In this document: positions 16,603-63,078 of the stretch, one piece after another
Position numbering within the stretch: the stretch's first letter is position 1
Layout of the letters: each line of letters begins with the position of its first letter
Source: Dehalococcoidia bacterium
Lineage (GTDB): Bacteria > Chloroflexota > Dehalococcoidia > Bin125
DNA length: 64,000 bases
NCBI GenBank assembly: GCA_963662615.2
Contig: CAXXSR010000001.1
Location: forward strand, 992,001-1,056,000
Direction: 5' to 3'
Position numbers and translations under genes: made by a program
The notes under the pieces: model-generated
What the model was told of the DNA's origin: nothing
The model's input: the letters and a program-made list of their open reading frames with translations, nothing else
Database searches by the model: none

Positions 16603-17832
16603 ATGACGACGGGACCGCTCACGGGCATCAAAATGATCGAGTGCACGACGTGGGGTTTCGGCCCCATCGGCGGGCTCATGCTGGGCGACCTGGGCGCCGA
16701 CATCGTCAAGATCGAGAGCCCCGACCGGCCCGACGGCGCCCGTCACCTGATGAACGTCGCCGGCATCGACAACCTCATGCCGGACGGCCGCTCGGCCACC
16801 TTCCAGAGCTTCAACCGCAACAAGCGATCCCTGGCGCTGAACCTGAAGTCGGAGCGCGGGCGGGAGATCCTCAAAGCGTTGATCGTCGATACCGACATCT
16901 TTTTGGAGAACTACCGCCCCGGCAGCTTCGAGGAGATGGGTCTGGGCTACGACGTCCTCTCCCGTCTCAACCCCCGTCTCATCTATGCCGCCGCCGCGGG
17001 CTACGGCTTCAAGGGCGAGGAGGCGCACAAGCCCGCCCTCGACGCCGTGGGCCAGGCGCGCTCTGGCTTCATGTGGTCTCAGGGCGCCCCCGGCGACCCG
17101 CCCAACTGGAACACCCTCGCCGTCGCCGACGTCATGGGCGCCACCTGCCTCGCCTACGGCATCCTGGCCGCCGTCGCCGCCCGCGAACTGCAGGGCGGTC
17201 TGGGGCAGAAGGTGGAGGTCTCCCACATCATGGCGAACATGTGGCTCTCCTACTGGGGCATCGCCGTCTCCATGCTCAAGGGCTATGACGAATGGCCCCG
17301 CTTCGACCGCCGCAACGCCGGCAACCCGCTCTGGAACCTCTACGAGTGCGGCGACGGCGAGTGGATCATGCTCGGCATCCTCCACGCCGATCGCGACTGG
17401 CCCGGCTTCTGCGAGGTCATGGGGCTCGACGGCTTGGTCGACGACCCTCGCTTCGTCGATATGGAAAAACGCAAGGCGAACGCTGGGGAGCTGATCGCGA
17501 TGCTGGACGCGCACTTTGCCACGGCGCCGCGCGCTGACTGGGAAGAGCGCCTGGGCCGCGACCGCGACCTCATCTTCACGCGCGTGCAGCGCATCGGCGA
17601 CCTGCCCTACGACCCCGCCATTCTCGCCAACGACTACCTCATCGACTACCACCATCGCCACTACGGCACGGTGAAGGCGCTGACCCACCCCGTCACCCTC
17701 TCGCGCACGCCCGCCTCCATCCGCCGCGACGCCCCCGAGCTGGGCGAGCACACCGCGGAGATCCTCAAAGAGCGCTTGGGCTACGGGGATGAGGAGATCG
17801 CGGAGCTTGTCGCGGAGGGGGTCGTTGCCTAA
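16603..17832 (+). CDS. Class III CoA-transferase (CaiB/BaiF)
   Basis: LGDLGADIVKIE, NRNKRSLALNLK, ENYRPG, APELGEHT. Confidence 0.93.
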   Translation: MTTGPLTGIKMIECTTWGFGPIGGLMLGDLGADIVKIESPDRPDGARHLMNVAGIDNLMPDGRSATFQSFNRNKRSLALNLKSERGREILKALIVDTDIFLENYRPGSFEEMGLGYDVLSRLNPRLIYAAAAGYGFKGEEAHKPALDAVGQARSGFMWSQGAPGDPPNWNTLAVADVMGATCLAYGILAAVAARELQGGLGQKVEVSHIMANMWLSYWGIAVSMLKGYDEWPRFDRRNAGNPLWNLYECGDGEWIMLGILHADRDWPGFCEVMGLDGLVDDPRFVDMEKRKANAGELIAMLDAHFATAPRADWEERLGRDRDLIFTRVQRIGDLPYDPAILANDYLIDYHHRHYGTVKALTHPVTLSRTPASIRRDAPELGEHTAEILKERLGYGDEEIAELVAEGVVA

Positions 17833-18063
17833 GGCGGGGTGCGGCGCAACGGAATGAGAATAAGGATTCAGAGTTCGCGATCTAGTGATCCTGGGCCTGA
17901 CGGCGGTCGTCGCGCTGCGGCTGGCTCAGCTTTCGGGGGCAGGTCACTCTTGTGTGCCGTTGAACTCATGTGAGCATTCGTAAGCCTACCGGATCCACTA
18001 GCCTAGCCATGTCTATCGGTTTCGCCACAATGGGGGCCTAGCGCCTGCAAGCGAGTCCTTGGA

Positions 18064-20253
18064 TTGCGCGGCGTCGGGAGTTTGACTGTCTTGAACGACG
18101 CGCTCAGGGTCCTGCGTTACATCCTCGACCTGTCTCATTGGGCCGTGCAACGCTGGCGTCGATTTCGCGGAGACGCACCAGGCGTCTCCTACTGGCTGCT
18201 TCGCCCTCCTTCATTAGGCGATTTGTTCGTGGATCGGAAAGAGGAAATTGATGCGCTGAAGAAGGCTGTCAAGAACCATGGAATCGTTGTCGTATATGGG
18301 ATCGCCGGGACTGGGAAGTCGCGGTTCGCCGTCGAATTCAGTCATCGGCGAAAAACTAAGGGGTTCTGGGTCCCTTTCGCGGGATCCGTGGACAGCACGC
18401 TCGCAACGCTCGCCCCGCAGCTTGGAGAAGCACCTACCGCCGCCTCGGAAGCAGAATTGTCAATGTTCGCACGGCGGCGACTCTCTCAGCTTCCCAAGAA
18501 GCCTCTACTGATCATCGACAACATACCGAGCGTCTCGTTGCTTTCGAATCTCATGCCCATTGTGCAGAGTGCGACGGTCCTATGCACGACTCGCGATGAC
18601 AGCGTCCACGCCCTCCCTCCCGGCACAGGTACCGTCGCAGTCGGTGTGCTCGATCCGTCTTCGGCGAAAAAGATGCTCTTATCGAGAGGGCGACACGACC
18701 CTAACAATCCGGCGTTGGATGAGTTGATAGTCGCAGTTGGCGCCCTCCCCTATGCATTGGAAATGCTTGCTATCAGGCTCGGCGATGCCGGCGAGTCCCC
18801 GCAGTCCCTCCTTCGCAAGATCAGATCGAAGTCTTCCGCGGTGGAGTTTGAAGCTTTCCGCTCGACTGAGGGGGTCTCTTTCCCACATGCAGAGAGCATT
18901 TTTGAGGCGATCGTGGGAGCACTGGATGATTTACCTCAAAGCGCGCGAGCAGTGGTCGGGCGTCTCGCGTATGTGAGTGACGGACCAATACCAAGGGTGA
19001 TGGCCCGGATGCTCAACGAAGAATCTGATGAGGACTTCGAGGCCGCACTTCGTGAGTTGCGCAGGCGTGGATTGGCACAGGTCAGTGGGGACTGGCTGTT
19101 CATGCACCCGCTGACGAAGTCAGCTATCGCCGCGACGAATGAGAGATCGGTTCTTCGCCAGACTCTCGGGTCCATGAGTCATGTACTGAGATTCGTGGAC
19201 GAAACCTTCGGCCTTGCGCCGCCGATTTTTCTCTGGCACGGGATGGCCGTGCTGACTCGAACGAAAGTGCTTGGACTTCGAGATCGTAGCGTTGCAGCGT
19301 TCGCCAACCAGCTCGGCATTTCCCTTCGCCGTGCAGGCCGCCTGGCTGAATCGATATCGCTCCTTGAGTTTGTGCTAGAAGTCAGGGCGGAAGTCGACGG
19401 TCACGAGCACTTCGACACTCTGGCGTCTCGCTATAACCTCTGTATGGCGTACTCAGATGTCGGCAGAATTGGCGAAGCAGTCGAAGGTTTGCAGGTGGTC
19501 CGCGAGAAGCTCTCGACTGATCCCGCACATGAGCGCGAATTTCTACACACGGCGATGGCACTCGACCACGCTCACTACCTGAAGGGGGAGACTGCGGAGG
19601 CAATCAAACTTTACGAACAGTATCTAGATCGGGTCGTAGCGACTTTTGGCGAGGGATCTGCCGAACACGTCACATATCTCGGCAACGTGGCACTCGCCTA
19701 CCGGAGGTCCGGGCGAATGGAGGAAGCGGTAAATTGCCAGCTAAAGGCTACACAGACTCTCGAGGACAAGCTCGGTCCTGACCATCTCGATACCCTCCTC
19801 GCGAATATGAACCTGGCTTCCAGCTACCGGAGATTGGGCCGTCTCGACAAGGCGGGCCCGATTCTTGATGAGACCGTCGCTCGCATGCATAGGATGCTTG
19901 GAGCGGAGCACCAGATCACGCTCGCCGCAAGCGATGAACTTGCGGCTTGTTACGCGGAAGTTGGCGATTTCGAACGTGCCCTCCCCCTTCACAGCTTCGC
20001 CGTTGACGGCCTGAAAAGGCTACTCGGTAATGCGCATCCCGAAACTGTGAGTGCGAGAATGCTCTTCGCAGTAACTAGTGTGCTGGCAGCGAAGGAGGGA
20101 AAAGGATCACGTCTCGACGCGGAGTCGAGAATTTCCGATGTTGAGAAAGCGCTGTCTGCACTCCAGTCAGATTTGGGACCCGATCATCCCCGCGCGGTGG
20201 AGGTACGGACAGGTCTCGCCGAGGCTCGCAAAGTGCTGGAGGCTCCAACGTAG
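18064..20253 (+). CDS. STAND (NB-ARC-like) P-loop NTPase with C-terminal TPR repeats
   Basis: FVDRKEEI, Walker A GIAGTGKS, Walker B LLIIDN, TTR, GALPYALE, MHPL; repeats of the LGPDHLDTL / LGAEHQITL / LGNAHPETV type; atypical codon usage; start uncertain. Confidence 0.85.
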   Translation: MRGVGSLTVLNDALRVLRYILDLSHWAVQRWRRFRGDAPGVSYWLLRPPSLGDLFVDRKEEIDALKKAVKNHGIVVVYGIAGTGKSRFAVEFSHRRKTKGFWVPFAGSVDSTLATLAPQLGEAPTAASEAELSMFARRRLSQLPKKPLLIIDNIPSVSLLSNLMPIVQSATVLCTTRDDSVHALPPGTGTVAVGVLDPSSAKKMLLSRGRHDPNNPALDELIVAVGALPYALEMLAIRLGDAGESPQSLLRKIRSKSSAVEFEAFRSTEGVSFPHAESIFEAIVGALDDLPQSARAVVGRLAYVSDGPIPRVMARMLNEESDEDFEAALRELRRRGLAQVSGDWLFMHPLTKSAIAATNERSVLRQTLGSMSHVLRFVDETFGLAPPIFLWHGMAVLTRTKVLGLRDRSVAAFANQLGISLRRAGRLAESISLLEFVLEVRAEVDGHEHFDTLASRYNLCMAYSDVGRIGEAVEGLQVVREKLSTDPAHEREFLHTAMALDHAHYLKGETAEAIKLYEQYLDRVVATFGEGSAEHVTYLGNVALAYRRSGRMEEAVNCQLKATQTLEDKLGPDHLDTLLANMNLASSYRRLGRLDKAGPILDETVARMHRMLGAEHQITLAASDELAACYAEVGDFERALPLHSFAVDGLKRLLGNAHPETVSARMLFAVTSVLAAKEGKGSRLDAESRISDVEKALSALQSDLGPDHPRAVEVRTGLAEARKVLEAPT

Positions 20254-20258
20254 CCGGC

Positions 20259-20348
20259 GGCGAACACAGCGCGGAGGTCCTCAAAGAGCGCCTGGGCTAC
20301 ACGGACGACCAGATCGCGGAGCTGGTCGCTGGGGGAGTCGTCGCTTAG
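20259..20348 (+). pseudogene. Orphan 3' fragment (29 codons plus stop) of the CoA-transferase
   Basis: Translates GEHSAEVLKERLGYTDDQIAELVAGGVVA*; no start codon. Confidence 0.85.
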
Positions 20349-20511
20349 CGCGTCCTCGCGCACCTGCCCGCACAGGTTCATCCCCCGAACCATGCCGGCG
20401 AGTTCCAGAGAATCGTCCGAATTGTTGCGGAAAGCCGAGCCGGACAGCGGGGACGGCCCGGATCATTCCGGGCCATCCCTTTGCAGCAGTTTGCCCAGCG
20501 CCCGCGGGGCG

Positions 20512-21234
20512 CTACACGGACGTCGCGGCTGGCGCGCCGAAGACGCGCTCGCTGATCCGATCCAGCATGCGCTCGAAGCGCTCATCCGCCTCGTCGGCGG
20601 TCAGGCGGCCGTTCTCGACCGCGCGGTCCAGGTGCTCTCGCAGGCGCACCGCGACCGCGTCCACCACGGCCTCGCCCGACGATCCGTTTTGCTCGGCGAT
20701 CTCGGCGATGGAGAGGCCGTCCTCCACGCCCGCGACGATCACTTCCGGCTCGACGCCGATCACGTCGGCGATCAGGCGCAGGAGGTGCGCTCGCGCGTGG
20801 CCGTGCGGCCGATCGTCGCCATCCGAGTCGTGCCGCGGCCCTTCCTGAACCCAGGTGGAGACGTGCTCGGGCAGGTTCGCGATCAGCTGCGCGGCACGGT
20901 CCGCGTCGATGCGTCCGGCCTCCTCGGCCTCTTCGATCTTCTCCGTGATCTCGTCCACCAGGTAGTCCGCCAACGCGTCGGAATCGACGCCGAGGCCCTC
21001 GGCGACCGCCGCCGGCGTCTCGCCGTCACGCAACGCCTGCACCAGCTCCGCGGGCTCAATCCCCAGGAACTCGGCCGTCAGCCCCAGGGGACCGTGGCGA
21101 TGGCGGTAACGCTCCGCCGTCACGGGGCTCGAGTCGTCGGGGGACGACGTCTGTGCGGCGACGGTCGCCACCGCGCCAACCGCCAGTGTCGCCGCGAACG
21201 TCAGGCTCAGCAACAGTTTGCGATTGAATCGCAT
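20512..21234 (-). CDS. Secreted hypothetical protein with two tandem helical repeats
   Basis: Signal peptide MRFNRKLLL..VAA; AEFLGIEPAELVQALRDGETPAAVAE...EAGRIDADRA and ADVIGVEPEVIVAGVEDGLSIAEIAE...ENGRLTADEA. Confidence 0.8.
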   Translation of the reverse strand: MRFNRKLLLSLTFAATLAVGAVATVAAQTSSPDDSSPVTAERYRHRHGPLGLTAEFLGIEPAELVQALRDGETPAAVAEGLGVDSDALADYLVDEITEKIEEAEEAGRIDADRAAQLIANLPEHVSTWVQEGPRHDSDGDDRPHGHARAHLLRLIADVIGVEPEVIVAGVEDGLSIAEIAEQNGSSGEAVVDAVAVRLREHLDRAVENGRLTADEADERFERMLDRISERVFGAPAATSV

Positions 21235-21396
21235 CTTTTTTTGTTTCCTTTCTCGCTACGCCCAGATGTCTTGAACGGTCCTCCCGACAGTACGCAGCGT
21301 TAGTAAGGACGCCATGCGCGGGGCGTAATGCCGCCGACAAGATTCCGTAAATTCGGGCCGCCAGCGAGAAGGTGGTGTGCGCCCCGCGAACGCCGA

Positions 21397-21903
21397 TTAG
21401 CGGTCGCGATGCTGCTTTACGATTGCCTTTACGATCGCCGCATCCAGGAGCGCGGCCTCCATCTCCTCAACCCGCACTGCATACGGACTCCCCAGCGCCT
21501 GCTGCCAGACCGGCTGCGCCTCCAGGCGGTCGCGGATCTCGTCCACCCCGCGCCACCAGTCCCACCCGGCGTCGATGGGGCCGGGCAGCTCGAGACGCAC
21601 GGGCGCTCCCTCGGCGAGATGCACGCGCATGTACCAGGCGTGACGGCGGAACGCGCCCGCGCGCAGCAGCACGACAAGTGGTGCGCCGCCGTCCGATCCC
21701 TCAGCTTCGACCTCGTAGGCGGCGCGCAGTTGAAAGTTGTGGATGGAGAACTGCCCGGCCGCCCGCCCGGTCCGGACCTTCCCGATGGCGGTGAGCCCGT
21801 CGGCCAGGACGATGAGCGCGGCCGCCCGCTCCAGCGGCAGGTTGGCTTCGTCCCAGGAGATTAAGTCCCCCGAGATGTCGTCCCAGGAGATCCGATCGTC
21901 CAT
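21397..21903 (-). CDS. Hypothetical protein
   Basis: ORF with host-like codon usage; no motif recognised. Confidence 0.6.
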   Translation of the reverse strand: MDDRISWDDISGDLISWDEANLPLERAAALIVLADGLTAIGKVRTGRAAGQFSIHNFQLRAAYEVEAEGSDGGAPLVVLLRAGAFRRHAWYMRVHLAEGAPVRLELPGPIDAGWDWWRGVDEIRDRLEAQPVWQQALGSPYAVRVEEMEAALLDAAIVKAIVKQHRDR

Positions 21904-22060
21904 CAGAGAAGCTGTCCCGTCGCGCCCGCCTGACGCCCGTTCGGGAAGGGCGACGGCGCAGCCCCGACGATACGGTGCCCCGTCGCGCCTTGCTCCTCGG
22001 CCACACTAAGTTGATCAGCCGCGCCATCGATCGCGCGCCCCGCGCTCGTCTGTCAAATCA

Positions 22061-22119
22061 GAACACTTGATCGGTTCTCGATACTGTTCGTATAGTACGG
22101 CTGTTCCGAACGCGTGTTC
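22061..22119 (+). promoter_or_regulatory. Sigma70-like promoter overlapped by three LexA (GAAC-N4-GTTC type) boxes
   Basis: TTGATC (22067)-N18-TATAGT (22091); GAACacttGATC 22061-22072, GTACggctGTTC 22095-22106, perfect GAACgcgtGTTC 22108-22119. Confidence 0.75.
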
Positions 22120-22185
22120 ACTGCATCGGAACGGTGGCGGGGTGAACTCTCCTGGGCTCTGGGGAGCCCCGGGAGGAACGGGTCC

Positions 22186-22392
22186 ATGTTCGAGATCGTC
22201 TTCATTGGCCTGCTGACCGCCGCCGTGATCGCCATGCTGCTCTGGCAATGGTGGATCGGCGCGCTCGCTCAACCGACGCTTCAACGCCGACACGCCCCGG
22301 GCTACCCCGGCGGTCGCTCCTCTGGGAGTGCGGACGCCTCAGGGCGCAGGCGCGACGGTACACGCGCGCGCGCCGGAAGACGCGCAGCGTAG
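22186..22392 (+). CDS. Small single-TM protein (68 aa), probably SOS-inducible
   Basis: GGGAGGA RBS, ATG 22186; MFEIVFIGLLTAAVIAMLLWQWWIGALA then an Arg-rich tail. Confidence 0.65.
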   Translation: MFEIVFIGLLTAAVIAMLLWQWWIGALAQPTLQRRHAPGYPGGRSSGSADASGRRRDGTRARAGRRAA

Positions 22393-22634
22393 CCCCGCCT
22401 CGGTGGCCTCCGCACCTCTCTCGAAACAGGGCTCCGCGCCCCTGAGCGCCCGTTTCGAGAGGCGGGCCGCTGCTGAGGCATCGCATCACGCCGAAAGCGA
22501 ACCGCTGGAGCGTCGCGGCGCGGCGGCGAGCCGTCGACCGAGGCACGCCTGGAGGTCCCTGGCCCGTGGCGATCGCAGTGGCTAGAGTGCAGCGACAGGC
22601 CACTCCGCTGGGGCCGCGCGAACGGGCGACTGCA

Positions 22635-23357
22635 ATGACCGCTCCACGGGGGACGTCCGCTGGTCGCCAGCCTGCGCCAGATCCGTTGGAGCTGGTGCCG
22701 CTGTTCCGGGGCATGTCGCCCGCCCTCCTGGGCGAGCTGGCGCGGAAGCTGCGCCCGCTCCGCTTCACCGCCGGCACGGCCATCTTCCACGCCGACGACG
22801 TCGGCTCCACCCTCTACATCATTGTCCGGGGCGCGGTGAAGATCTTCATTCCTACCGCGGACGGGCGTGAGGTCGTTCTGGCCGTGCAGCGCGCCGGTGA
22901 CCTCTTTGGCGAGATGTCGCTGCTGGATGATCAGCTCCGTTCCGCCTCCGCCAGCACCCTGGACGACACGGAGATCGTCAGCCTCTCCCGCCAAGACTTT
23001 CAAGATGTCCTGGAGCACCATCCCGACGCCTGCCGCGCCATCCTGGACGTTCTGGTCAAGCGGCTCCGCCAGACCAACCAATCGATCCAGGACGCCTACC
23101 TCCTCGACGTCCCGGGCCGGCTCGCGCGGCGCCTCCTCCTCCTCTCCCGCGAGCATGGCGTCCCCGTCGAACAGGGCACCGAGATCGCGCTGCGGGTCAG
23201 CCAGCAAGATCTCGCCAGCATGATCGGCGCCAGCCGGGTCGCCGTGAACAAGCAGCTCCAGGCCTGGCGGCAGGACGGAGTCGTTGAGGTGCGGCGACAG
23301 CGCGTCACCATCCTCAAGCCGGAGGCGCTGGAGCAACACTTCGCGCTCGCCCCGTAG
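22635..23357 (+). CDS. Crp/Fnr family transcriptional regulator
   Basis: FGEMSLLD..RSASA cNMP pocket; SQQDLASMIGASRVAVNKQL HTH. Confidence 0.93.
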   Translation: MTAPRGTSAGRQPAPDPLELVPLFRGMSPALLGELARKLRPLRFTAGTAIFHADDVGSTLYIIVRGAVKIFIPTADGREVVLAVQRAGDLFGEMSLLDDQLRSASASTLDDTEIVSLSRQDFQDVLEHHPDACRAILDVLVKRLRQTNQSIQDAYLLDVPGRLARRLLLLSREHGVPVEQGTEIALRVSQQDLASMIGASRVAVNKQLQAWRQDGVVEVRRQRVTILKPEALEQHFALAP

Positions 23358-23394
23358 GGCGCGCCGCCGGCGGGCTGCGGAGAGGGTAAGGCTC

Positions 23395-24342: not shown

Positions 24343-24404
24343 GCGACAGCCGGGGCCAGCTTCGATTCGCTACGGGCCTGCCGCGCCGCCGACGATGATC
24401 AGAC

Positions 24405-38993: not shown

Positions 38994-40082
38994 TTAGATG
39001 AGGGGCCGGGGGACCGCGACCCCCACCTCCTTCGCCAGTTCGGTCAACTGCTCGATCGTCTTGGCCTCTAGCGGGATCCCGCTGGCCTCGCGCTCACTCC
39101 GCCGCGCCGCTTCGACGTCTCCGGGGATCAGGACCGCCTCCACGCCCGACGCCGGCTTCGTCGCGCGGACGTGATCCACCATCGCTTTCATCTCCGCTTT
39201 GAACTCGGCCGGCGCGCGGAAGAGGTCAATGCGCCAGGCCGCGAACCACTGCCCCATCCCCCAGCTCTCCCGCTCCATGAACAGCCCCGATCCCAGACCC
39301 GAGAGCACGCCGCAGAGGATGTCGACCATCAGCCCCAGGCCGTAGCCCTTGTACGACCCCGTCTCGAGCCGCGACCCCAAGGGCAACAGCGCGCCCCCCT
39401 GCTGCAGGATCGACGGATCGTCGGTGTCGGCGCCGGTCGCGTCAATCGCCCAGCCGAGAGGGATGCGCTTGCCCTGCCGCTCGGCGATCTCCAACTTGCC
39501 GCCCGCCACCGCCGTGGTCGCCATGTCCAGCAGGAAGGCGTGATCGTCTTGCACCGGCGCGCTCATCGCCAGCGGGTTGGTGCCAAACACCCGCTCCACG
39601 CCGCCCGCGGCCGCGCCCAGCGGCCAGAAGTTGCACATGGCCATGCCAATCAGGTCGCGCTGGCCGGCCATGTGGGCGTAGTAGCCGGCGGCGCCGAAAT
39701 GCCGGCCGTTGCGCACCGTGACCATGCCAATGCCGCTCTGCTCGGCCTTTTGGATGCATGCCTGCATCGCCCGGCTCGCCACCAGCGGCCCGAAGCCACG
39801 GTCGCCGTCCCAGGCCGCGCTCGACGCCGTCTCCCGCAACACCTCCACCTTGGGGTGCGGGTTCACGAACCCGCCCTTGAAACCGGGCACGTAGCCCATG
39901 TGCCAGGGCAGATGTGCGATGCCGTGCGACTCGATCCCTTGGAGGTCGGCGTCAATCAGGACCGTCGCGCCCAAGGCCGCATCCTCGGCCGGCATGCCGA
40001 AGTGCTCCAGCACGGCCGCTGTGAATTGGCGCAGGTCCTGGGCGCGGAAGCGGAGGCGCGTGTCGGCCTCCGCCGCTGCCAT
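38994..40082 (-). CDS. Ldh_2 (type 2 malate/L-lactate) oxidoreductase
   Basis: ADLQGIESHG, HFGAAGYY, GTNPLA, LDMATT, YKGYGL; start coupled to upstream stop (TGATG). Confidence 0.9.
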   Translation of the reverse strand: MAAAEADTRLRFRAQDLRQFTAAVLEHFGMPAEDAALGATVLIDADLQGIESHGIAHLPWHMGYVPGFKGGFVNPHPKVEVLRETASSAAWDGDRGFGPLVASRAMQACIQKAEQSGIGMVTVRNGRHFGAAGYYAHMAGQRDLIGMAMCNFWPLGAAAGGVERVFGTNPLAMSAPVQDDHAFLLDMATTAVAGGKLEIAERQGKRIPLGWAIDATGADTDDPSILQQGGALLPLGSRLETGSYKGYGLGLMVDILCGVLSGLGSGLFMERESWGMGQWFAAWRIDLFRAPAEFKAEMKAMVDHVRATKPASGVEAVLIPGDVEAARRSEREASGIPLEAKTIEQLTELAKEVGVAVPRPLI

Positions 40083-40846
40083 CAGCCGTCCCCGCGAACG
40101 GTACGCAGCCCTCGCACCGCGCCCTGCATCATGAATTGGATGTCGGAGCCCATCGCCACGAAGCGCCAGCCCTCTTGTCCGCGCCGGGCGGCCTCCTCGG
40201 GGCCGCTGGTGAAGATCCCCGCCGCCACGCCGTGCTTCTGGCACGACTCCAGCACCGCTGTGCAGGCGGCGATGTGGTCGGGATGCGGGTGATCCGCACG
40301 CGGCGGCAGGCCCATCGACATGGCCAGGTCCGACGGGCCGATCAGCGTCGCGTCGATGCCGGGCACCGAGAGGATTTCGTCGATCCGCTCCACCGCCCCC
40401 GCCGTCTCGATCTGCACGATGCAGGCGATCTCCTCGTTGGCGTGTTCGGCGTAGTCGCGGCCGCCGTACAGCAGGCCCCGGTACGGGCCCCAGCCTCTGG
40501 TTCCAATCGGCGGGTAGCGGCAGGCCGCGACCGCCTGCTCTGCCTCGGCCTTGCTATTGATCCAAGGGATCACGACCCCGTAGGCGCCGCCGTCCAGGAT
40601 GCGCTTGATCTCCACCATGTCGTTCCAGTGCACGCGCGCGAACGGCATGGTCTCGCTGCCGGAGATGACCTGGAACATCTGCACCATGGTCAGCAGGTCG
40701 GCGGGGCTGTGCTCGCCGTCGACGACGACCCAGTCGAAGCCGGCCGACGCCATCTGTTCGGCGGCCAGTGTGCTGCACGAGGAGAGCCAGGCCCCATAGG
40801 CCGTCTTGCCCTCGCGCCAGAGCCGTTTCACCGTGTTTGGACGCAC
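40082..40846 (-). CDS. HpcH/HpaI aldolase family protein
   Basis: DWVVVDGEH, RYPPIGTRG, QIET, IGPSDL. Confidence 0.92.
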   Translation of the reverse strand: MRPNTVKRLWREGKTAYGAWLSSCSTLAAEQMASAGFDWVVVDGEHSPADLLTMVQMFQVISGSETMPFARVHWNDMVEIKRILDGGAYGVVIPWINSKAEAEQAVAACRYPPIGTRGWGPYRGLLYGGRDYAEHANEEIACIVQIETAGAVERIDEILSVPGIDATLIGPSDLAMSMGLPPRADHPHPDHIAACTAVLESCQKHGVAAGIFTSGPEEAARRGQEGWRFVAMGSDIQFMMQGAVRGLRTVRGDG

Positions 40847-55736: not shown

Positions 55737-55804
55737 CCAGCCGGTCTGAAATGTCGAATAGGCGCTTGACGAGCGCGATCGAATTCACAATCCCTTCGTG
55801 ACAG

Positions 55805-57031
55805 GTGGCGGTGTTGGAGATTCCCGTCGAGCTAACCGCAGAAAAGGGCTCAGAATTCCTCGAATACCTTCGGGCCTCACTTGAAGCTGCTGGCCGCATC
55901 ACCGGTTCAGAGGGCGGCTATGAAGAAGACGGTCGTTTCATAACCAGCTTAAAAATAGTGACGGAGCCGGAGCCTCAACGTGAGATTCCAGTCCGATGGA
56001 CCGTGACCCAAAACACTGACGGATCATTGGATCCGATCGTTGTCGATGGACCTAGTGAATTGGATGCCCGCCTCTGGGAATCTGTTGCCACAGATATCGT
56101 CAGGCGAGCACTCAACGCCGCCCGCAACGAGCAGCGCGGACTCTTTTTCCGACGGCACCCTTTCGCTTACTTTGGCCTCCCTCTCGACGGCGAATATTGG
56201 ATCTCTGACTGGCGATTCGCGCCTGTCTTCCCGAACGAGGAAACCGGTGGCTTGCTGCACCAGCCCGAGCGGGTCGTGTATTTGGACCACAACGTAGCGG
56301 CCATTGACGATCAACACGCCTCTTCGATAGCGGCAGCGCGTGCGAGTCGCTTCGCCTCTGTGCTCTCGGTCATTTTGGACATCGGCCTTGAGTCGCCTCA
56401 GCTCGAGACGCGCTGGGTTATGCTCGACCGCGATCACTCCGAGAAAAAGTCCCTGGGATTTCTTGATCCGCGACGACACGGCACTAGGATGCCCGAGCAG
56501 GGCGAGGCGTGCAGCCTCGGAGTCTATGAGACGGTTGATCGCGACAATCTCCAGACCCTGGATTGGGATATAACCACCACGACGCTGAAGATGCCGTCGG
56601 ATGCTTCCGAGCTGATCCACGGCCTGAACTCGTTGCCCCCAGATGACCAGGAGGCCTTCTATGGTGCGTCTGGCTTGTACCGGATCAGCTTGACTGCAGG
56701 TCGGAAATATCTGAGCGTTCGTATGGCGTATCAGGTGGCCGCAGTCGATGCCCTCGTTAGCGGCTACAGCACCACAGAGAAGTTCATCGATCTTGTTGGA
56801 GCTTACTGCTCCGAAGCTCCGCACGAATTGTCACGACGACTATACGGCTACGTTCGCTCACGCCACCTCCATGATGGAATATTTCCAGGCGGCGAGTACG
56901 ATCCCCAGACCATCAGATCCGTCTTCGATCACGCTCACATCGAACGATTCGACCTGCGGAGACAGGCTTACGTCGTTGCCCGTACGGTGCTTATCCGCTG
57001 GCTACGGCACAAGAGCGGGCTCACCTCATGA
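55805..57031 (+). CDS. Low-GC hypothetical protein with C-terminal HEPN-like RxxxxH motif
   Basis: AYQVAAVDAL...LYGYVRSRHLHDG; codon usage clearly unlike neighbours. Confidence 0.6.
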   Translation: MAVLEIPVELTAEKGSEFLEYLRASLEAAGRITGSEGGYEEDGRFITSLKIVTEPEPQREIPVRWTVTQNTDGSLDPIVVDGPSELDARLWESVATDIVRRALNAARNEQRGLFFRRHPFAYFGLPLDGEYWISDWRFAPVFPNEETGGLLHQPERVVYLDHNVAAIDDQHASSIAAARASRFASVLSVILDIGLESPQLETRWVMLDRDHSEKKSLGFLDPRRHGTRMPEQGEACSLGVYETVDRDNLQTLDWDITTTTLKMPSDASELIHGLNSLPPDDQEAFYGASGLYRISLTAGRKYLSVRMAYQVAAVDALVSGYSTTEKFIDLVGAYCSEAPHELSRRLYGYVRSRHLHDGIFPGGEYDPQTIRSVFDHAHIERFDLRRQAYVVARTVLIRWLRHKSGLTS

Positions 57032-57100
57032 GGTGAGCAATTTCCGTTATTCTCACCCGGCACCGATCCGTCCGACCAACAGAACCGAAAGGACCCCACT

Positions 57101-57427: not shown

Positions 57428-57445
57428 CGGTCCGCGGAGCACACG

Positions 57446-58438
57446 ATGGCAGGTCCGCTCCCCGTCCTGGTCCAGGGGCTTGGACCCATGGGCCTCAAGA
57501 TCCTGCACGCCGCCCAGGCCGACCCCGACTTCGACGTGGTCGCTGCGGTGGACGTCGCCGAACCCCTCGCCGGCCGCGATCTCGTGGACGTTGCGCCCGG
57601 CGCCCCGCCCGGCATCACGATCCAGCCCACGCTCCAGCAAGCCCGCAACGCCGCCGCTGCCACGGCGGACCTCCGCGACGCCATCGTCCTGCACGCCACC
57701 GGCTCCTATCTCAAGGCCGTCGCCCCGCAGCTGGAGGACGCCCTGCAACTCGGCCTCCACGTGGTCTCCACCTGCGAGGAGCTTTCGTACCCCTTTGTGC
57801 GCCACCCCAATCGCAGCCGCGAGCTTGAGGGCCTGGCCCGCGCGGCGGGGCGCACGATCGTCGGGACCGGTGTCAACCCCGGCTTCGTCATGGACCAGCT
57901 TGTGGTGACCTTGCGGGCCGCCAGCCACGCCATCCGCGCCGTCACGGTGCGGCGCGTGCAGGACCCGCGGCCGCGTCGTCTCCCCTTCCAGCGGAAGGTG
58001 GGCCTGGGCCTGTCCCGTCACGACTACGACACGCTCGCCGCCTCGGGAAAGTTCGGCCACGTCGGCCTGGAGGAGAGCGGGTGGCTGGTCGCGGCGGGCC
58101 TCGGCTGGGACATCGACGGCTGGACGACCACGCTGGAGCCCGTCCAGCCCGATCCGCAGGGCCCGGTGCTGGGCACCCTCCAGCGGTTGCAAGGCGCGAC
58201 AGCCGACGGCCGCACCGTTCTCCTCCACTTTGAGGCCCACTCCGGCGTGGAGGCGAGCTTCGACGAAATCGAGATCGACGGCACTCCACCCCTGAAGCTG
58301 CGCTTCGTGGGCGGCGTCTTCGGTGACGACGCCACCGCCGCCGCCGTGCTTCGCGCCGCCCGCGTCATCCCCAGCGCCGCCCGCGGCCTCCTCACCGTCC
58401 TCGACCTGCCCCTGCGGGCGCGGCCGCACAGCGAATAG
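57446..58438 (+). CDS. Dihydrodipicolinate reductase-like / 2,4-diaminopentanoate dehydrogenase-like oxidoreductase
   Basis: GLGPMG, VVSTCEELSYP, GTGVNPGFVMD, RRLPFQRKVG, GDDATAA. Confidence 0.8.
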   Translation: MAGPLPVLVQGLGPMGLKILHAAQADPDFDVVAAVDVAEPLAGRDLVDVAPGAPPGITIQPTLQQARNAAAATADLRDAIVLHATGSYLKAVAPQLEDALQLGLHVVSTCEELSYPFVRHPNRSRELEGLARAAGRTIVGTGVNPGFVMDQLVVTLRAASHAIRAVTVRRVQDPRPRRLPFQRKVGLGLSRHDYDTLAASGKFGHVGLEESGWLVAAGLGWDIDGWTTTLEPVQPDPQGPVLGTLQRLQGATADGRTVLLHFEAHSGVEASFDEIEIDGTPPLKLRFVGGVFGDDATAAAVLRAARVIPSAARGLLTVLDLPLRARPHSE

Positions 58439-58578
58439 TGCCCCGTGGTCGCGCACGGCCGCTGCGTCGATCTTGTCTTGTGGGCCCGGCCGGGCGTCGC
58501 ACCGCAGCCTGACGCCGGCGAGCCGTCGTTCTGAGGACGCACTGACGTAGATCGAGGGCGAGGGCGGGGGCGGGTGGA

Positions 58579-59286
58579 TTACGGGGTGCAGCGCGGTCCG
58601 TCTGCGACGGTCCACGTCGCGCAGGACGGTATCGCGGGGGCTCGCTCCGCGGCCGGTCCGACCACGGCAGCAGCGGGCGGCGACCCCGCGGGAGTCTCAG
58701 CGCCCTTCTCGAAGTACACCGTGAACGTGTTCTGGGTGAACTGCCCGGTCCTGTCCGTAGCCGTCACCGTGATCCGGTTCGCGCCCTCTTGCAGGGCCAG
58801 ACCCAGCGTCCAGCGACCGTCCACCGCGACGTCCGCCTCCTGCGCGCCCACGGCCACGAACGTGCCCGGCTCCGTGGCGCCCACCAGCACCACCCAGGGC
58901 TGCGTCACGAGGCTACCGGGACGGGGGATGTTGACCTCGAGGGTGGGCGCCGGCGACACCGTCCTCGCGACCACGATGGCCTCGGAGGCCACTTCCGCGG
59001 GCGGCTGTGCGGCCGGCTGTACGGCCGGCGCCTCGTCGACGGCGGCTGCAACCGCCACGCCCCCATCCGCCTCCCCGGCGTCGCTGCCACCCAGAAGCGC
59101 AAGCGCAACGGCGACGACACCCACCGCGAACGCCACAAGCGCCGCAACGGCGAGAACACGCCGGCTCGGGCGCTTATTCCAGATGCGGCGGTCGGTTTCG
59201 CTCTCGGCAGCACCAGACTCGGCGACGTGAACGCCCGTCATCGGATCCCAGCCAAGCTCTTCTTGCACCTGCTCCAGGTTGCTCAT
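58579..59286 (-). CDS. Membrane-anchored protein with an Ig-like beta domain
   Basis: Single TM; VGATEPG..V.V....VDGRW...LALQEGANRITVTATD. Confidence 0.65.
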   Translation of the reverse strand: MSNLEQVQEELGWDPMTGVHVAESGAAESETDRRIWNKRPSRRVLAVAALVAFAVGVVAVALALLGGSDAGEADGGVAVAAAVDEAPAVQPAAQPPAEVASEAIVVARTVSPAPTLEVNIPRPGSLVTQPWVVLVGATEPGTFVAVGAQEADVAVDGRWTLGLALQEGANRITVTATDRTGQFTQNTFTVYFEKGAETPAGSPPAAAVVGPAAERAPAIPSCATWTVADGPRCTP

Positions 59287-59358
59287 CGCATCTCATAGAC
59301 GCAGATGGCGTGCAACCGTTACGGGCCTTGGGCCCCTGTCCCGGCGCGCGAGAGCGCA

Positions 59359-60153
59359 TCACGCGTCAAATCGCGGCGCCCGCTTCTCCAGGAACGCCGC
59401 CACCCCCTCGCGATGCTCGGGGTGCGCCATCTGCTCCGACTGTCGCTCCGCCTCGAAGTCCAGCAGCTCTTGCAGCCCCATCCCCAACCCCCGGTACACG
59501 GTCTCCTTGATCAGCGCCTGCGCCCTCGGCGGCCCCTGCGCCAGCCGCGTCGCCAGCGCGTAGGTCTCGTCGTGCAGGTTCGCGGCAGGCACCACCCGAT
59601 TCACCATGCCGATTCGCAGCGCCTCCTCCGCGTCGATCAAGTCGCCGCTCAGGAACAGCTCCAGCGCTCTGCCCACCCCCACCAGCCGTGGCAGCAGCCA
59701 GGCTCCGCCCATGTCGTCGCCCAGGCCCACCCGCACGAAGGCCAGCCCGAACCGCGCCCCCACCGCCGCAATGCGCATATCGCAGGCCAGGGCCAGGTTG
59801 CAGCCGGCCCCGGCGGCAACGCCGTTCACCATCGCGATGGTCGGCTTCGGCATCGTCTGCAAGCGCATCGCCACTTGATGCAACGCCTGGAAACGGGCCC
59901 GCCGCTCCGCCTCCGGCAGATCCCACCCACCCCCCGGCCCCATGCCGGAGACGTCGCCGCCCGCGGAAAAGGCGCGGCCGGCGCCGGTCAGCACCAGCAC
60001 CCGCACGGCGCCGTCAGTCGCCACCTGCGCGGTCGCCTCCCGCAGCTCGTCCTCCAGTTGGCGGCTTAAGGCGTTCAGCTTCTCCGGCCGCTTGAGTGTG
60101 ATCGTGCCGACGCCATCCGCCGTCGTCGTCAGGGACAGGCATTCGAACGTCAT
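59359..60153 (-). CDS. Enoyl-CoA hydratase/isomerase
   Basis: TLKRPEKLNAL, FSAGGD, VNGVAAGAG, EGVAAFLEKRAPRF; ATG 60153. Confidence 0.93.
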   Translation of the reverse strand: MTFECLSLTTTADGVGTITLKRPEKLNALSRQLEDELREATAQVATDGAVRVLVLTGAGRAFSAGGDVSGMGPGGGWDLPEAERRARFQALHQVAMRLQTMPKPTIAMVNGVAAGAGCNLALACDMRIAAVGARFGLAFVRVGLGDDMGGAWLLPRLVGVGRALELFLSGDLIDAEEALRIGMVNRVVPAANLHDETYALATRLAQGPPRAQALIKETVYRGLGMGLQELLDFEAERQSEQMAHPEHREGVAAFLEKRAPRFDA

Positions 60154-60359
60154 CCGGGTGCTCCTTTCGCATCGACGATCCGCTTCACAGATCGCTGCGG
60201 CGGAGCCTAGCAAAGGCCTGCCCCCACGACGGCCCCCGGCAGCGGACCGCCCTTCCCGCCTGATAGAGCCCCGTCCCACCGCCCTGTATGATGGGCCCGC
60301 GTCGACGGCGCACCGCAGCAAAGGCCGCAGCGCGCGCGTGGACCTTCAGGAGCGGAGCG

Positions 60360-60893
60360 ATGGCGGACAACACGGCGGACAACAAGGCCGACAACACGTT
60401 CGAAAGTCGCGAGTTTCGAGATGCCTGCGGCCTCTTCGCGACGGGGGTCACAGTGCTCACGTCCGGCAAGGCGCCCAGCTTTCACGGCATGAGCGCCAAC
60501 GCCTTCTCCTCCCTGTCGCTGGACCCGCCCCTGGTGCTCGTCTGCATTGACAAGAAGACGCACATGTTGGAAGTGCTGCAAGAGACCGGCGCTTTCACCG
60601 TCAATGTTCTCAGCCGGGAGCAGGAAAAGCTCTGCCGCTACTTCGCCAGCAGCGACCGCACCTACGGTCCCGAGGAGTTCGCCGATGTCCGCTACAGCAT
60701 CGGCGCCACCGGCACGCCCCGCCTCGACGGCGCCATCTGCGTGCTGGACTGCACCGTGCACGACGTCGCCCGCGGCGGTGACCACGACATCTATATCGGC
60801 GAGGTGCAGGCGCTTGAGTGCCTCAATGAGGGCGAGCCGCTGCTCTTCTATAGCGGCCACTACCGCTCCGTCGCCCCGGCCAAGGAGTCGTAG
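60360..60893 (+). CDS. Flavin reductase family protein
   Basis: FRDACGLFATGVTV, SLSLDPPLVLVC, GGDHDIYIGEV, PLLFYSG. Confidence 0.93.
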   Translation: MADNTADNKADNTFESREFRDACGLFATGVTVLTSGKAPSFHGMSANAFSSLSLDPPLVLVCIDKKTHMLEVLQETGAFTVNVLSREQEKLCRYFASSDRTYGPEEFADVRYSIGATGTPRLDGAICVLDCTVHDVARGGDHDIYIGEVQALECLNEGEPLLFYSGHYRSVAPAKES

Positions 60894-60960
60894 CGCTCCC
60901 AGCCCGGCCCCCAACGATCCGCTACCGCGCCCAGAGCCACCGCGCCTAGCCCAACCGCCT

Positions 60961-61764
60961 CTAGCGGTAGGGGACGCCCAGCGATCGCAGGTACGCCTCC
61001 TCCAGCGCGGCTGTCTGCACCGCCTCAACCAGCGCGCCCGCCGCCCGGCCCAGCACGAGCTGTGCCAGCGAGCGTCGAGGGCGAAGCGTCACCGTCTTCG
61101 CCGGGATTCCGGCCCGTTCCGCCGCCCAATCCACCGCGTCGTCCAGCGTCCCCACGTCGTCAATGAGGCCCACCTCCTTGGCCTGGCTGCCCAAGTAGAT
61201 CTCCCCCGTCGCCAGCTCGCGGATCCGTTCCTGGCTGAGACCGGGCCGCCCCGCCGCGACGATCTCCAGAAAGCGGGTGTAGATCGCATCTAGGAGCGCC
61301 TGCTCCTTGGCCCGCTCCTCCGGCGTGGCTTCCCGAAACGGCGAGCCCATGTCCTTGTAGAGGCCCGTCTTCGCCACCAGCATCTCCACGCCTATCTTGT
61401 GGAGCAGCGCCTCGACCATCGGCCGCGCCGACACCACCCCGATCGATCCCACCACCGCGCTGGGGAGCGCCACGATCCGCTCCGCCGCGCAGGCGACCAT
61501 GTAGCTCCCGGAAGCGCCGACCCCGCGGATCGCCGCGATGACGGGGCGACGCTCCGCCAGTCGACGGGCCGCCAGGTAGATGTCCTCCGATGCGAAGACG
61601 CTCCCGCCCGGCGAGTCGATGTCCAGCACCACCGCTCGGTAGCGCGAATTCTGCCCCACGCTCCGCAGCAGCTGGGTGGCATCGCGAGCCCGCAAGCGGG
61701 GGCCAATGATCCCGCTCAACTCCACGACCGCCACTCGGGGCGGTAGAAACTCGTTGACGTCCAT
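60961..61764 (-). CDS. sppA: Signal peptide peptidase SppA (short form)
   Basis: IDSPGGS, ASGSYMVA, GSIGV, KTGLYKDMGSPFR, GLIDDVG; AGGAGG RBS. Confidence 0.9.
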   Translation of the reverse strand: MDVNEFLPPRVAVVELSGIIGPRLRARDATQLLRSVGQNSRYRAVVLDIDSPGGSVFASEDIYLAARRLAERRPVIAAIRGVGASGSYMVACAAERIVALPSAVVGSIGVVSARPMVEALLHKIGVEMLVAKTGLYKDMGSPFREATPEERAKEQALLDAIYTRFLEIVAAGRPGLSQERIRELATGEIYLGSQAKEVGLIDDVGTLDDAVDWAAERAGIPAKTVTLRPRRSLAQLVLGRAAGALVEAVQTAALEEAYLRSLGVPYR

Positions 61765-61982
61765 GTTCGTCTCCTCCTTGCGACCGGCCCAATTCTCGCC
61801 CCTGCCGATCTCGCGGCGCAATCATGGAGGGTTCTGCTCGCCGGCGCTATGCCCTTCTATGCGCTCACATTTGACCGCGCCCGCCCACCCCGGCATGCTG
61901 ATGCTCGGGTCCCGCGTGGGCCTCGGCACAGGTTCGGACGAAGCGCGCCGCAGCGCCCGCACGGCAGTAGGGGAGGACCGGC

Positions 61983-62360
61983 TTGGCTGAGGTGGACGTC
62001 TGCCCCCTGAGTGAGCTACCGCCCGGCTCCGTCACCGCCGCCGACATCGACGGCGCCCGCGCCTGCGTGGCCAACGTCAACGGCGAGGTCTTCGCCGTGC
62101 AGGATCGCTGCCCCCACCTCTTCGCCAACCTCTCTGTGGGCGAGCTCAACGGTGGCAACATCGTCTGCCCCTGGCACGACTCCGAATTCGACATGCGCAC
62201 CGGCGAGACCAAGAAATGGGTTCCCACGGGCATCTGGCACTTCCTGGATCAGAAAGCTCCGCCCCTGCCCGCCTTCCTGGAGGCGAAGCTCAAGCCCGCG
62301 CAGATCCGCACCTTCCGCACTCGCATCGTCGACAGCGTCATCCGCGTCTCCGACGAGTGA
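61983..62360 (+). CDS. Rieske [2Fe-2S] ferredoxin
   Basis: CPH...CPWHDSEFDMRTG; GGAGG RBS before TTG. Confidence 0.9.
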   Translation: MAEVDVCPLSELPPGSVTAADIDGARACVANVNGEVFAVQDRCPHLFANLSVGELNGGNIVCPWHDSEFDMRTGETKKWVPTGIWHFLDQKAPPLPAFLEAKLKPAQIRTFRTRIVDSVIRVSDE

Positions 62361-62370
62361 CCCAAAGCGC

Positions 62371-63078
62371 TCAGCCCCGCGGCAGCCCTAACCCCCGCGT
62401 GGCGCTGTCCCCCCTTCGCCCTGACCTGTCCTTCGCGCAGCAGAAGGAGCTTGTCGAAGGGTGAACGGAGGCCACGCGTCTCAGCCCCGCGGCAGCCCCA
62501 ACCCCCGCGTCGCGATGATGTTGCGCTGAATCTCCGACGTCCCCGCCCTATTCCTGTAACGTGAACGGGTGGGCACATTCCGCGTCCAGATCGAGATCGG
62601 CGACCCCCAGGGCCAGCGCTGGGAGACCGCGGACGTCCTCGTGGACACCGGCGCGACGTACTCCTGGCTCTCCGCGGAGCTCCTGCGGCGCCTGGACGTT
62701 CGGCCCGAGTTCAGCATTGAGTTCGAGACGGCTGACGGCCGCGTTATTCGTCGCGACGCGGCTCACACGCGGGCTCGCCTTGACGGGCAGGAGCGCATCA
62801 CCATCGTCGTCTTCGGCGATGAAGGGTCGCAATCGTTGCTGGGGGCGTACACCCTGGAGGGGTTCCTGTTGGCTCCGGACCCCGTGAATGAGCGCCTCAT
62901 TCATGTCCGTGGCCTGGCGATGGCTACGTCCTTCGCCTCTCACCGTTCGCCCTGACCTGTCCTTCGCGCAGCAGAAGGAGCTTGTCGAAGGGTGAACGGA
63001 GACCACGCGTCTCAGCCCCGCGGCAGCCCCAACCCCCGCGTCGCGATGATGTTGCGCTGTATCTCCGACGTCCCCGCC
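62371..63078 (-). repeat. Three copies of the acyl-CoA dehydrogenase 3' end (62371-62404, 62481-62547, 63012-63078) interleaved with two REP-like hairpins (62412-62468, 62943-62999)
   Basis: 133-bp direct repeat 62415-62547 vs 62946-63078 with 2 mismatches; copies encode (AGTSEIQRNII)ATRGLGLPRG*. Confidence 0.9.
62569..62955 (+). CDS. Clan AA retropepsin-like aspartic protease
   Basis: LVDTGATY catalytic motif, TADGR flap, LLGAYTLE, DPVNERL; stop lies inside the REP copy. Confidence 0.88.
   Translation: MGTFRVQIEIGDPQGQRWETADVLVDTGATYSWLSAELLRRLDVRPEFSIEFETADGRVIRRDAAHTRARLDGQERITIVVFGDEGSQSLLGAYTLEGFLLAPDPVNERLIHVRGLAMATSFASHRSP

Follow-up and report, generated by a model that had tools for sequence, protein, structure and literature searches.

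Orphan gene tails beside small accessory genes in a Dehalococcoidia chromosome: possible recombination scars at insertion hot spots

The DNA considered here is a stretch of 64,000 nt from the chromosome of a Dehalococcoidia bacterium (contig CAXXSR010000001.1, positions 992,001 to 1,056,000), called the window below. It has a GC content of 69%, is rich in catabolic genes (thiolase, acyl-CoA synthetase, enoyl-CoA hydratase, glutamate synthase and others) and also holds two family III CoA-transferases and two acyl-CoA dehydrogenases. Where its proteins and loci have named relatives, these are Chloroflexota / Dehalococcoidia metagenome bins. At two sites, behind a CoA-transferase gene (case 1) and behind a dehydrogenase gene (case 2), the intact gene is followed by a separate gene, called cargo here, and then by an orphan copy of its own last codons, stop included (Table 1). 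An earlier reading of the window, made from the letters alone (the sequence-only reading), had pointed to this architecture, and it is indeed present twice: the direct repeats lie at 17743-17836 and 20259-20352 in case 1, and at 62412-62558 and 62943-63089 in case 2, the latter with a shorter third copy.

Table 1. Features of the two sites and of a third low-GC gene in the window (GC3, GC content at third codon positions).
Feature	Position	Strand	Remarks
Intact CoA-transferase family III gene, host of case 1	16603..17832	+	409 aa; PF02515, E 4.9e-101
Copy 1 of the tail repeat: final 29 codons of the intact CoA-transferase gene, with the stop and 4 nt	17743..17836	+	direct repeat; blastn E 3.5e-19
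Inserted low-GC DNA, ~2.4 kb, its limits exactly the two tail copies	17837..20258	.	GC 0.58 versus 0.67-0.70 in the flanks
Cargo 1: STAND-like P-loop NTPase with TPR repeats	18091..20253	+	720-aa form; AAA_16, ATPase_2, TPR_12, TPR_10
Orphan CoA-transferase tail, 29 codons and stop, in frame, without upstream gene body	20259..20352	+	repeat; codon comparison
Third low-GC single gene behind a gene end, without tail repeat; possible ApeA/HEPN-like (lead only)	55805..57031	+	GC3 0.64
Rieske ferredoxin gene, conserved convergent neighbour bounding the case 2 hot spot	61983..62360	+	PF00355; syntenic in L001, L002, L003
A′: third, probably oldest dehydrogenase tail stub, last 10 codons and stop, 9 nt from the Rieske stop	62370..62407	-	38 nt, 92%
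B2: copy of a 69-nt hairpin-forming non-coding element	62412..62479	.	part of the 147-nt repeat; fold
A2: orphan dehydrogenase tail, 21 codons and stop	62480..62558	-	repeat; firm homology stops near 62548
Cargo 2: 128-aa clan AA (retropepsin-like) aspartic protease	62569..62955	+	PF13975/PF13650, ~1e-8
B1: hairpin element directly 3′ of the intact dehydrogenase gene	62943..63010	.	plus strand -35.0 kcal/mol, z -2.9
Intact acyl-CoA dehydrogenase gene ACAD2, host of case 2	63012..63998	-	Acyl-CoA_dh_N/M/1; C-terminal 328 aa inside the window

In case 1, the two tails can be aligned over 94 nt at 82% identity (89 nt at 83.1% in a blastn comparison of the window with itself). The longest identical run is of ~14 nt, and 23 of the 29 residues encoded are the same in the intact and the orphan copy. 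The insert contains a single open reading frame (ORF), for which an alternative upstream TTG start at 18064 is also open. Its product, the NTPase, matches AAA_16 (E 6.8e-7) and TPR_12 (E 1.2e-37) in Pfam, as well as FxSxx_TPR with 5.8e-74, a match below the cut-off of that model; the GC3 of the gene is 0.62. The exact 720-aa sequence is on record in the protein collection, and near-identical assemblies carry the same CoA-transferase, protease and NTPase (near-identical proteins P0124, P0253, P0255, P0257, P0004 and P0245). Two relatives of the NTPase-TPR protein in other assemblies, P0258 and P0259, exist only as 414- and 418-aa forms, one of them with an unrelated N-terminus, which suggests that the cargo 1 gene may be broken, or split at contig ends, in some close relatives. 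A plasmid origin of the cargo was rejected: searching plasmids with the NTPase gave only matches of <27% identity, and the protease of case 2 had no plasmid match.

The CoA-transferase orthologues are Chloroflexi-type metagenome proteins of 66-79% identity, the nearest distinct ones being only 77-79% identical. In the tails of the 11 nearest, a mean of ~21.5 of the 29 positions match the intact tail and ~22 of 29 match the orphan; these orthologue tails are equally far from both copies, and neither copy is favoured as the native tail at this site. The orphan did not match the second CoA-transferase gene of the window, and a protein search with a 40-codon tail stretch returned nothing at E<=10.

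In case 2, the order along the plus strand is Rieske gene, A′, B2 and A2, protease, then B1 joined to the tail (A1) of the dehydrogenase gene. The direct repeat is 147 nt long (95% identity, E 1.6e-61) and its copies are 531 nt apart. Of each unit, ~66-69 nt correspond to the last 21 codons and the stop (protein identical, 21/21), and the other 69 nt to the non-coding hairpin. The third copy consists of the last 38 nt of the tail, meaning that the two stubs differ in extent (38 versus ~69 nt) yet have these 38 nt in common. At the inner limit of A2, the last 10 nt match at 7 positions out of 10 (62549-62558 versus 63080-63089). The protease gene has its stop codon inside the B1 hairpin; the core of the protein family stops at ...VRGLAM. 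With a GC3 of 0.83, the gene is not clearly foreign. Its product matches TIGR03698 at 3.6e-8, a match below that model's cut-off, and 673 homologues were detected, mostly unnamed metagenome proteins, the named ones coming mostly from Chloroflexi/Dehalococcoidia metagenome-assembled genomes. The ACAD2 gene runs past the window edge. The protein is 59% identical to its paralogue ACAD1 (15252-16424), and 72-74% identical to its orthologues in three related loci (L001-L003, see below).

No integrase, transposase or recombinase domain was detected by Pfam in the 120 ORFs of the window that were scanned (55 + 65), and the window contains 0 tRNA/tmRNA genes and 0 Rfam matches, as the sequence-only reading had stated for integrases, transposases and tRNAs near the two sites. 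A transposon or insertion sequence was rejected on these grounds: there is no transposase domain, no inverted repeats are found at the cargo borders, and the duplications are of 89-147 nt. In integron gene cassettes, a promoterless ORF precedes an attC hairpin, whose 5′ end has the inverse core ...AAC and whose 3′ end has the core GTT..., and the integrase IntI lies nearby or elsewhere in the genome. The arms of the case 2 hairpin read GTTCGCCC...GGGTGAAC, with GTT first and AAC last. An integron cassette was rejected as well, since the order of the core is reversed and no integrase domain was detected in the scanned window ORFs.

A 16-nt motif of the hairpin arm (CCGTTCRCCCTTCGAC) is found behind both dehydrogenase paralogues, at 15220-15235 (within 15165-15251) and in 62943-63010. 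It is absent from all 80 related loci, and a genome-wide repetitive extragenic palindromic element was rejected on this basis. The last 60 coding nt of ACAD1 and ACAD2 are 79% identical, versus ~58% just upstream. The shared arm and the similar ends hint at conversion, or at a common element at the ends of the paralogues, and may favour some inter-paralogue traffic.

The 80 related loci (designated by L numbers) come from a search of public genomes with the window dehydrogenase (63012-63998) as the query, in which the top match had 74% identity. Together with the window they amount to 1,409,781 nt, ~1.35 Mb of which belong to the relatives. Scanning this material for direct repeats gave 134 pairs, and 16 of them end at a shared ORF end, 3 in the window and 13 foreign to it. 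An orphan dehydrogenase tail was found in 0 of the 80 loci. Among the foreign pairs that were inspected, a part of the 13, one is a true analogue of the window cases: in L047 (4280-4370 / 5197-5287), 826 nt of lower-GC DNA, containing an unknown ORF, separate a thiamine pyrophosphate (TPP)-enzyme gene from an orphan tail at 81% identity. In L071 (5085-5188 / 5366-5469), a tail is duplicated around 177 nt of non-coding DNA, with copies 95-98% identical. In L053 (18854-18971 / 19912-20030), the duplicated unit (94%) runs from a gene tail through the spacer and 36 nt into the gene that follows, and between its copies lie a truncated ATPase gene and low-GC DNA. A mirror scan for duplicated gene heads yielded 10 pairs, none in the window, and only that of L053 was verified; counted mechanically in the relatives, the head-type pairs, unverified except L053, are 10, versus 9 + 5 of the tail type. 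From the scan of the relatives and from L053, we conclude that the architecture recurs in the lineage, but rarely, and that it is not confined to tails. The two window cases are not the only ones in this material, L047 and L071 being further ones.

Several other pairs were rejected as tail cases. An exact 55-nt repeat in L066 (4712-4921) flanks a run of 100 N and mimics a tail duplication; it is a scaffolding artefact. The pairs of L079 and L060 correspond to two full paralogues each, that of L064 is not at a gene tail, and one pair of L047 and those of L057 are dispersed short repeats. The dispersed repeat is 60-186 nt long, exists in several copies and both orientations (L047 13626-13809 / 16375-16558; L057 8360-8419, 18085-18285, 18933-18992 and 20181-20244), and is possibly a small non-autonomous element. 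The spacer behind an amidohydrolase gene in L053 (8238-8515) and in L071 (5189-5365) contains short 'gggaatgacgg'-type hairpin repeats in both loci; it shows a near-exact 128-nt tandem duplication in L053, and the duplicated gene tail in L071.

The order dehydrogenase - Rieske - S49 peptidase is kept in three of the relatives, L001, L002 and L003. Measured between the two convergent stop codons, the gap separating the dehydrogenase and Rieske genes is 25 nt long and empty in L003; it reaches 928 nt in L001, with an NYN-domain gene, 2568 nt in L002, with low-GC DNA and three unknown ORFs, and 650 nt in the window, with the protease gene and the tail stubs. No tail repeat was found in the L001 and L002 gaps at E<=1e-4, the threshold applied to flanking repeats at all occupied sites in the relatives. 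Behind the orthologues of the other window dehydrogenase, ACAD1, the gap is of 68-234 nt in L028, L057 and L026, of 985 nt in L029, where it holds a Gp49/HTH toxin-antitoxin pair, and of 1666 and 1871 nt in L019 and L047 respectively, where it holds a methylase-HNH fusion; again, none of these six gaps has flanking repeats. The fusion, of an N6/N4 DNA methylase with an HNH nuclease, lies directly behind the dehydrogenase orthologue (L019 11000-12442, L047 10998-12380) and is not present in the four other relatives. A third variable site is found behind the TPP-enzyme gene, with a gap of 566-2748 nt in these same six loci.

No recombinase domain was detected in the cargo of L001, L002, L029, L019 and L047, and no cargo is shared by two sites in the window or the 80 loci. 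The only other protease homologue among the 80 loci, in L013, is 37% identical. Defence or toxin-type genes are present at case 1, in L047 and L053, and in the islets of the relatives, and the enrichment in such genes claimed by the sequence-only reading holds for the cargo and for its counterparts in relatives. We conclude that the short spacers behind these metabolic genes are hot spots, occupied by different small defence / toxin-antitoxin-type genes in related Dehalococcoidia-type genomes. For the dehydrogenase site, the empty L003 gap supplies the empty-site comparison with relatives that the earlier reading had called for. The comparison speaks against its discrete mobile 'cassettes': the same orthologous sites carry other cargo in relatives, without tail repeats.

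The orphan tails were compared with the intact ones codon by codon: zero indels were found, and the stop codons are retained. Case 1 has 8 synonymous and 7 non-synonymous differences (P 0.015 against neutrality; proportions of synonymous and non-synonymous differences, pS 0.375 and pN 0.107), and L047 has 10 and 7 (P 0.002 against neutrality). The few differences in the other tails are all synonymous: 1 in A2, 2 in A′ and 2 in L071. Based on the fact that the differences are mostly synonymous, without indels and with stops kept, most of the divergence arose while both tails sat in working genes, and such divergence under protein-level selection speaks against a local duplication with later decay. 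The orphans are orthologue-grade tails. For the intact tail of L047, the identity to that of a close relative, L057, is 96.7%. The orphan is 93% identical to the L029 tail, 90% to that of L019, 84% to that of L057 and 81% to its own neighbour, with no crossover pattern inside the repeat; a second TPP copy was found in 0 of 5 relatives. Being nearer to the tails of other lineages than to its own neighbour, this orphan is a piece of another lineage's gene.

On its far side, the L047 orphan adjoins a HEC-01 candidate defence pair (5270-7082), composed of an AAA_21 ATPase and a DUF4276 protein (E 1e-143 and 1e-44), and what follows the intact tail immediately is a sequence similar to the native terminator of the relatives. 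Judging from these neighbours, the orphan need not have the same history as the cargo it encloses. The assumption of the sequence-only reading that a tail and the enclosed cargo arrive together was therefore dropped as a necessity. In L057 and L026, a secreted-protein gene common to both occupies the TPP-enzyme gap instead of HEC-01.

We put at about even chances the proposal that the orphan tails are recombination scars at accessory-gene hot spots, and not the ends of a self-contained mobile element. The comparisons directly show the hot spots, the signature of selection, the foreign origin of the orphan in L047, that duplicated units are of mixed content, and the lack of a recombinase domain in the scanned ORFs. 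How the DNA was anchored and joined, and in which direction each event ran, we infer as follows. Incoming DNA from a related lineage would bring its own copy of the conserved flanking gene, and pair with the resident one by homologous recombination. Its non-homologous far end might then undergo illegitimate joining, a few dozen nt into the 3′ portion of the resident gene; by another route, the fragment might first close into a circle and enter by one crossover. Either route would leave the intact gene first, then the cargo and last the orphan tail; the element would need no recombinase of its own, and every further round would push the earlier tail outward. Such outward shunting would account for the dehydrogenase series, namely intact tail, hairpin, protease gene, 21-codon stub, hairpin and older 10-codon stub. 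A′ would be the old empty-site junction, A2-B2 a later resident end, and A1-B1 with the protease gene the newest arrival. A′ lies 9 nt from the Rieske stop, a position that corresponds to the spacer at the empty L003 site, and the divergence grows outward, from a pS of 0.05 in A2 to 0.19 in A′. Were the second joint to fall outside the gene, no repeat would be left, which would account for the repeat-free occupied sites in relatives. The duplicated unit is a piece of the site and not the tail as such, since it includes the hairpin in case 2, a spacer and a gene head in L053, and in L071 surrounds non-coding DNA.

Related arrangements are known. Phage 21 and e14, in the icd gene of E. coli, carry a diverged 3′ end of the gene, like the orphans here, but are integrase-mediated. 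In the 'minimal mobile elements' of Neisseria, the cargo varies while the conserved genes on either side stay the same, and it is exchanged by homologous recombination and without mobility genes; they use a double crossover and hence leave no duplicated tail, unlike the window sites. In the C-terminal displacement of rhs genes (Jackson et al. 2009; PMC2935791), an incoming circle with a piece of the gene is proposed to recombine, so that the old 3′ fragment is shunted downstream. As at our sites, dissociated 3′ fragments lie behind an intact version of their gene, the incoming DNA is of different GC content and no integrase takes part; unlike at our sites, the process swaps a variable toxin tip together with its immunity gene and diversifies the protein (PMC2935791). 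In the window, the C-termini are those of conserved enzymes (21/21 and 23/29 residues identical), the protein is unchanged, and the cargo is a separate gene. The arrays of effector and immunity genes of the Vibrio cholerae type VI secretion system have been explained by sequential displacement through homology-facilitated illegitimate recombination (PMC5361080). They have in common with the course proposed for our sites a conserved upstream anchor gene, another end joined illegitimately, and older 3′ ends, there of effectors, pushed downstream serially; however, they are toxin-immunity arrays in a naturally competent species, whereas the present sites are metabolic genes in uncultured Dehalococcoidia-type genomes (PMC5361080).

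In an experiment in E. coli, 56 of 60 clones resulted from a single crossover of the re-circularised fragment, which had short homology, and the duplications in 14 sequenced clones were of 109-950 bp (PMC3240628). The likeness lies in a direct duplication around the insert, of 89-147 nt here, made without a site-specific recombinase, and the difference in a laboratory construct with identical homology, while the window copies differ by 5-18% (PMC3240628). At an illegitimate joint, a microhomology of 3-10 bp is expected (PMC3240628). The homology to a donor that homology-facilitated recombination supposes is found in the orthologue-grade orphans, the one of L047 being 93% identical to the L029 tail. 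Islands flanked by attachment (att) sites but deprived of integrase are called cis-mobilizable elements (CIMEs) (PMC5704250, PMC3146451). Like these and the ssrA islands of Dehalococcoides, our sites show no integrase, are flanked by a gene 3′ end and a direct repeat, and may be arranged serially; but the repeats described there serve a known recombinase family as att sites, and their insertion point is fixed (20 bp in ssrA) (PMC5704250, PMC3146451). In the window, no recombinase was found in the scanned ORFs and no fixed point is apparent, and most occupied sites are repeat-free. The sequence-only reading knew of no named system matching the architecture; orphan 3′ fragments are, however, described for rhs and type VI secretion genes (PMC2935791, PMC5361080), and islands without an integrase as CIMEs (PMC5704250, PMC3146451). 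Its integrase-free mechanism based on gene-end homology stays plausible in view of the circle precedents (PMC3240628, PMC2935791), but a new class of cassettes docking at paralogues is not supported.

Among other explanations, decayed site-specific integrative elements of the CIME kind appear unlikely. An integrase-bearing island would have entered the 3′ end of the gene with its own copy of the tail, the integrase would have been lost later or have acted in trans, and the three dehydrogenase copies would be due to tandem accretion. The succession of gene, cargo and tail repeat, with serial copies, fits the definitions of CIMEs and accretion (PMC5704250), Dehalococcoides has 15 islands with ssrA 3′-end repeats and without an integration module (PMC3146451), and the case 1 insert is compositionally foreign. 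Against this stand the lack of a recombinase domain in the 120 window ORFs and in the cargo of L001, L002, L029, L019 and L047, the orthologous sites occupied without flanking repeats at E<=1e-4, and the orphan dehydrogenase tail seen in 0 of 80 loci. Nor is a fixed insertion point apparent: the stubs are of 38 and ~69 nt, and the L053 unit combines a tail, a spacer and the head of the next gene. A replacement 3′ end borne by an element would give the reverse of the L047 pattern, where the intact tail is of the native type and the orphan of the foreign type over its whole length. Distinctly unlikely, too, is the mechanism of the sequence-only reading, in which single-gene cassettes without integrase, kept as circles with a gene tail, would use RecA to dock at the C-termini, themselves conserved, of highly paralogous catabolic genes, and would pass from one paralogue to another. 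It draws on the occurrence of the architecture twice in 64 kb and again in L047 and L071, on the tight delimitation of the cargo, on the hairpin motif and the similar last 60 coding nt of the two dehydrogenase paralogues, and on the precedent for circles (PMC2935791, PMC3240628). However, each orphan matches its own neighbour gene and not the paralogue: A2 differs from the ACAD2 tail at 1 of 66 coding nt, and is 78% identical to that of ACAD1. In addition, no cargo is found at a second site in the window or the 80 loci, the L013 protease homologue being at 37% only, the intact L047 tail is followed by native-looking sequence while the foreign-type orphan adjoins a different cargo, and head-type duplications were flagged about as often as tail-type ones, although unverified except L053.

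It seems improbable that the gene once had a tandem duplicate, either a paralogue or an orthologue brought in from outside, and that the orphans are what was left of it after most of it had been deleted or overwritten on arrival of the cargo. The mostly synonymous divergence does indicate that orphans were once in working genes, and these gene families are highly paralogous, with several matches on one contig and 101 long dehydrogenase matches in 81 sources. Yet a tandem copy was found in 0 of 3 orthologous dehydrogenase loci and in 0 of 5 TPP loci. Besides, all stubs are of at most 30 codons, compared to genes of 390-550 codons, their borders are those of the cargo, and case 2 also copies non-coding DNA, at 95%. 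A local duplication of the target, in which a staggered or resected break would take up foreign DNA by ligation and have its long overhangs filled in, fits the near-identical copies of case 2 (95%), L071 (95-98%) and L053 (94%) and their similar unit size of ~90-150 nt. It appears quite improbable, as case 1 and L047 are only 81-83% identical, with a synonymous excess, and the L047 orphan is nearer to another lineage's gene than to its neighbour. Finally, strain variants may have been threaded into one contig during assembly; L066 offers an example, with its exact repeat around 100 N, and the related records are mostly metagenome bins. We hold this very improbable for the window, where the copies are 82% and 95% identical, not 100%, and where the protease with its extension into the hairpin exists as three sequence-distinct versions (P0244, P0004 and P0245), and the NTPase in two full-length versions (P0256 and P0257).

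Several observations weigh against the proposal that the tails are recombination scars. At the CoA-transferase site, no parental allele, donor or empty, appears among the sequences compared. The case 2 copies (99% in the coding part) and those of L071 (95-98%) look indistinguishable from a recent local duplication. To the right of the orphan in L047, a sliding identity comparison across the conserved block gave no sign of a donor tract, and an anchor on that side seems unsupported. The joints are very near the cargo (the orphan tail starts 5 nt past the NTPase stop, and the A2 homology ends 20 nt before the protease start), as a tidy cassette would give as well. Two sites in 64 kb are denser than what is seen in relatives, where 2 clear cases of a tail and 1 of a duplicated site were confirmed over 1.35 Mb. 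The proposed course would also require natural competence, or another route of DNA uptake, in the lineage.

A broader form of the proposal, that gene-end homology would be a regular, recombinase-free route for small defence / toxin-antitoxin islets among Dehalococcoidia-type genomes, working either through one RecA-dependent crossover of a fragment closed into a circle or through a flanking-gene anchor combined with an illegitimate joint, and frequent enough to leave serial stubs, is possible but doubtful. If true, one could read from the stub sequences which lineage was the donor, and in what order a hot spot acquired its genes. Recognisable mobility genes are lacking at many hot spots of horizontal transfer, and the entry route is mostly deduced indirectly. 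Orphan tails of the flanking gene would be a physical trace: they would tell that part of this gene arrived from another lineage together with the incoming DNA, and a relative chronology of events could be read from the succession of stubs. Should stubs prove common in uncultured, paralogue-rich Chloroflexi, they would offer a cheap genomic marker of integrase-free islet turnover. For annotation, such stubs are neither genes nor att sites. The arrangement would be a variant on a known type of recombination scar, found here at metabolic genes bordering small defence-type islets.

The sequence-only reading had also listed a third foreign gene, HEPN-like, at 55805. Its low GC content and its position behind a gene end were confirmed, and no flanking repeat was found around it in the window self-search. 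The protein gave nothing in Pfam even at E<=1, nor in NCBIfam and PADLOC. Its HEPN-like character comes down to an R-x4-H motif in the translation and to a weak lead, an atlas similarity of 0.88-0.89 to clusters in which 11-17% of the members have HEPN_Apea.

Outside cases 1 and 2, the self-search of the window by blastn gave only matches between paralogues and one tandem repeat. Other window genes include those for a ferritin-like protein (8176-8880, +), a Crp-family regulator (22566-23357, +) and an HpcH/HpaI aldolase (40082-40846, -). The tandem repeat, at 7071-7258, is made of ~3 units of 64 nt with a pairwise identity of 83%. Each unit ends with GGTT(A/C)AAAAA, and the repeat is placed between a small ORF and the 3′ end of an M48 peptidase gene (7251).

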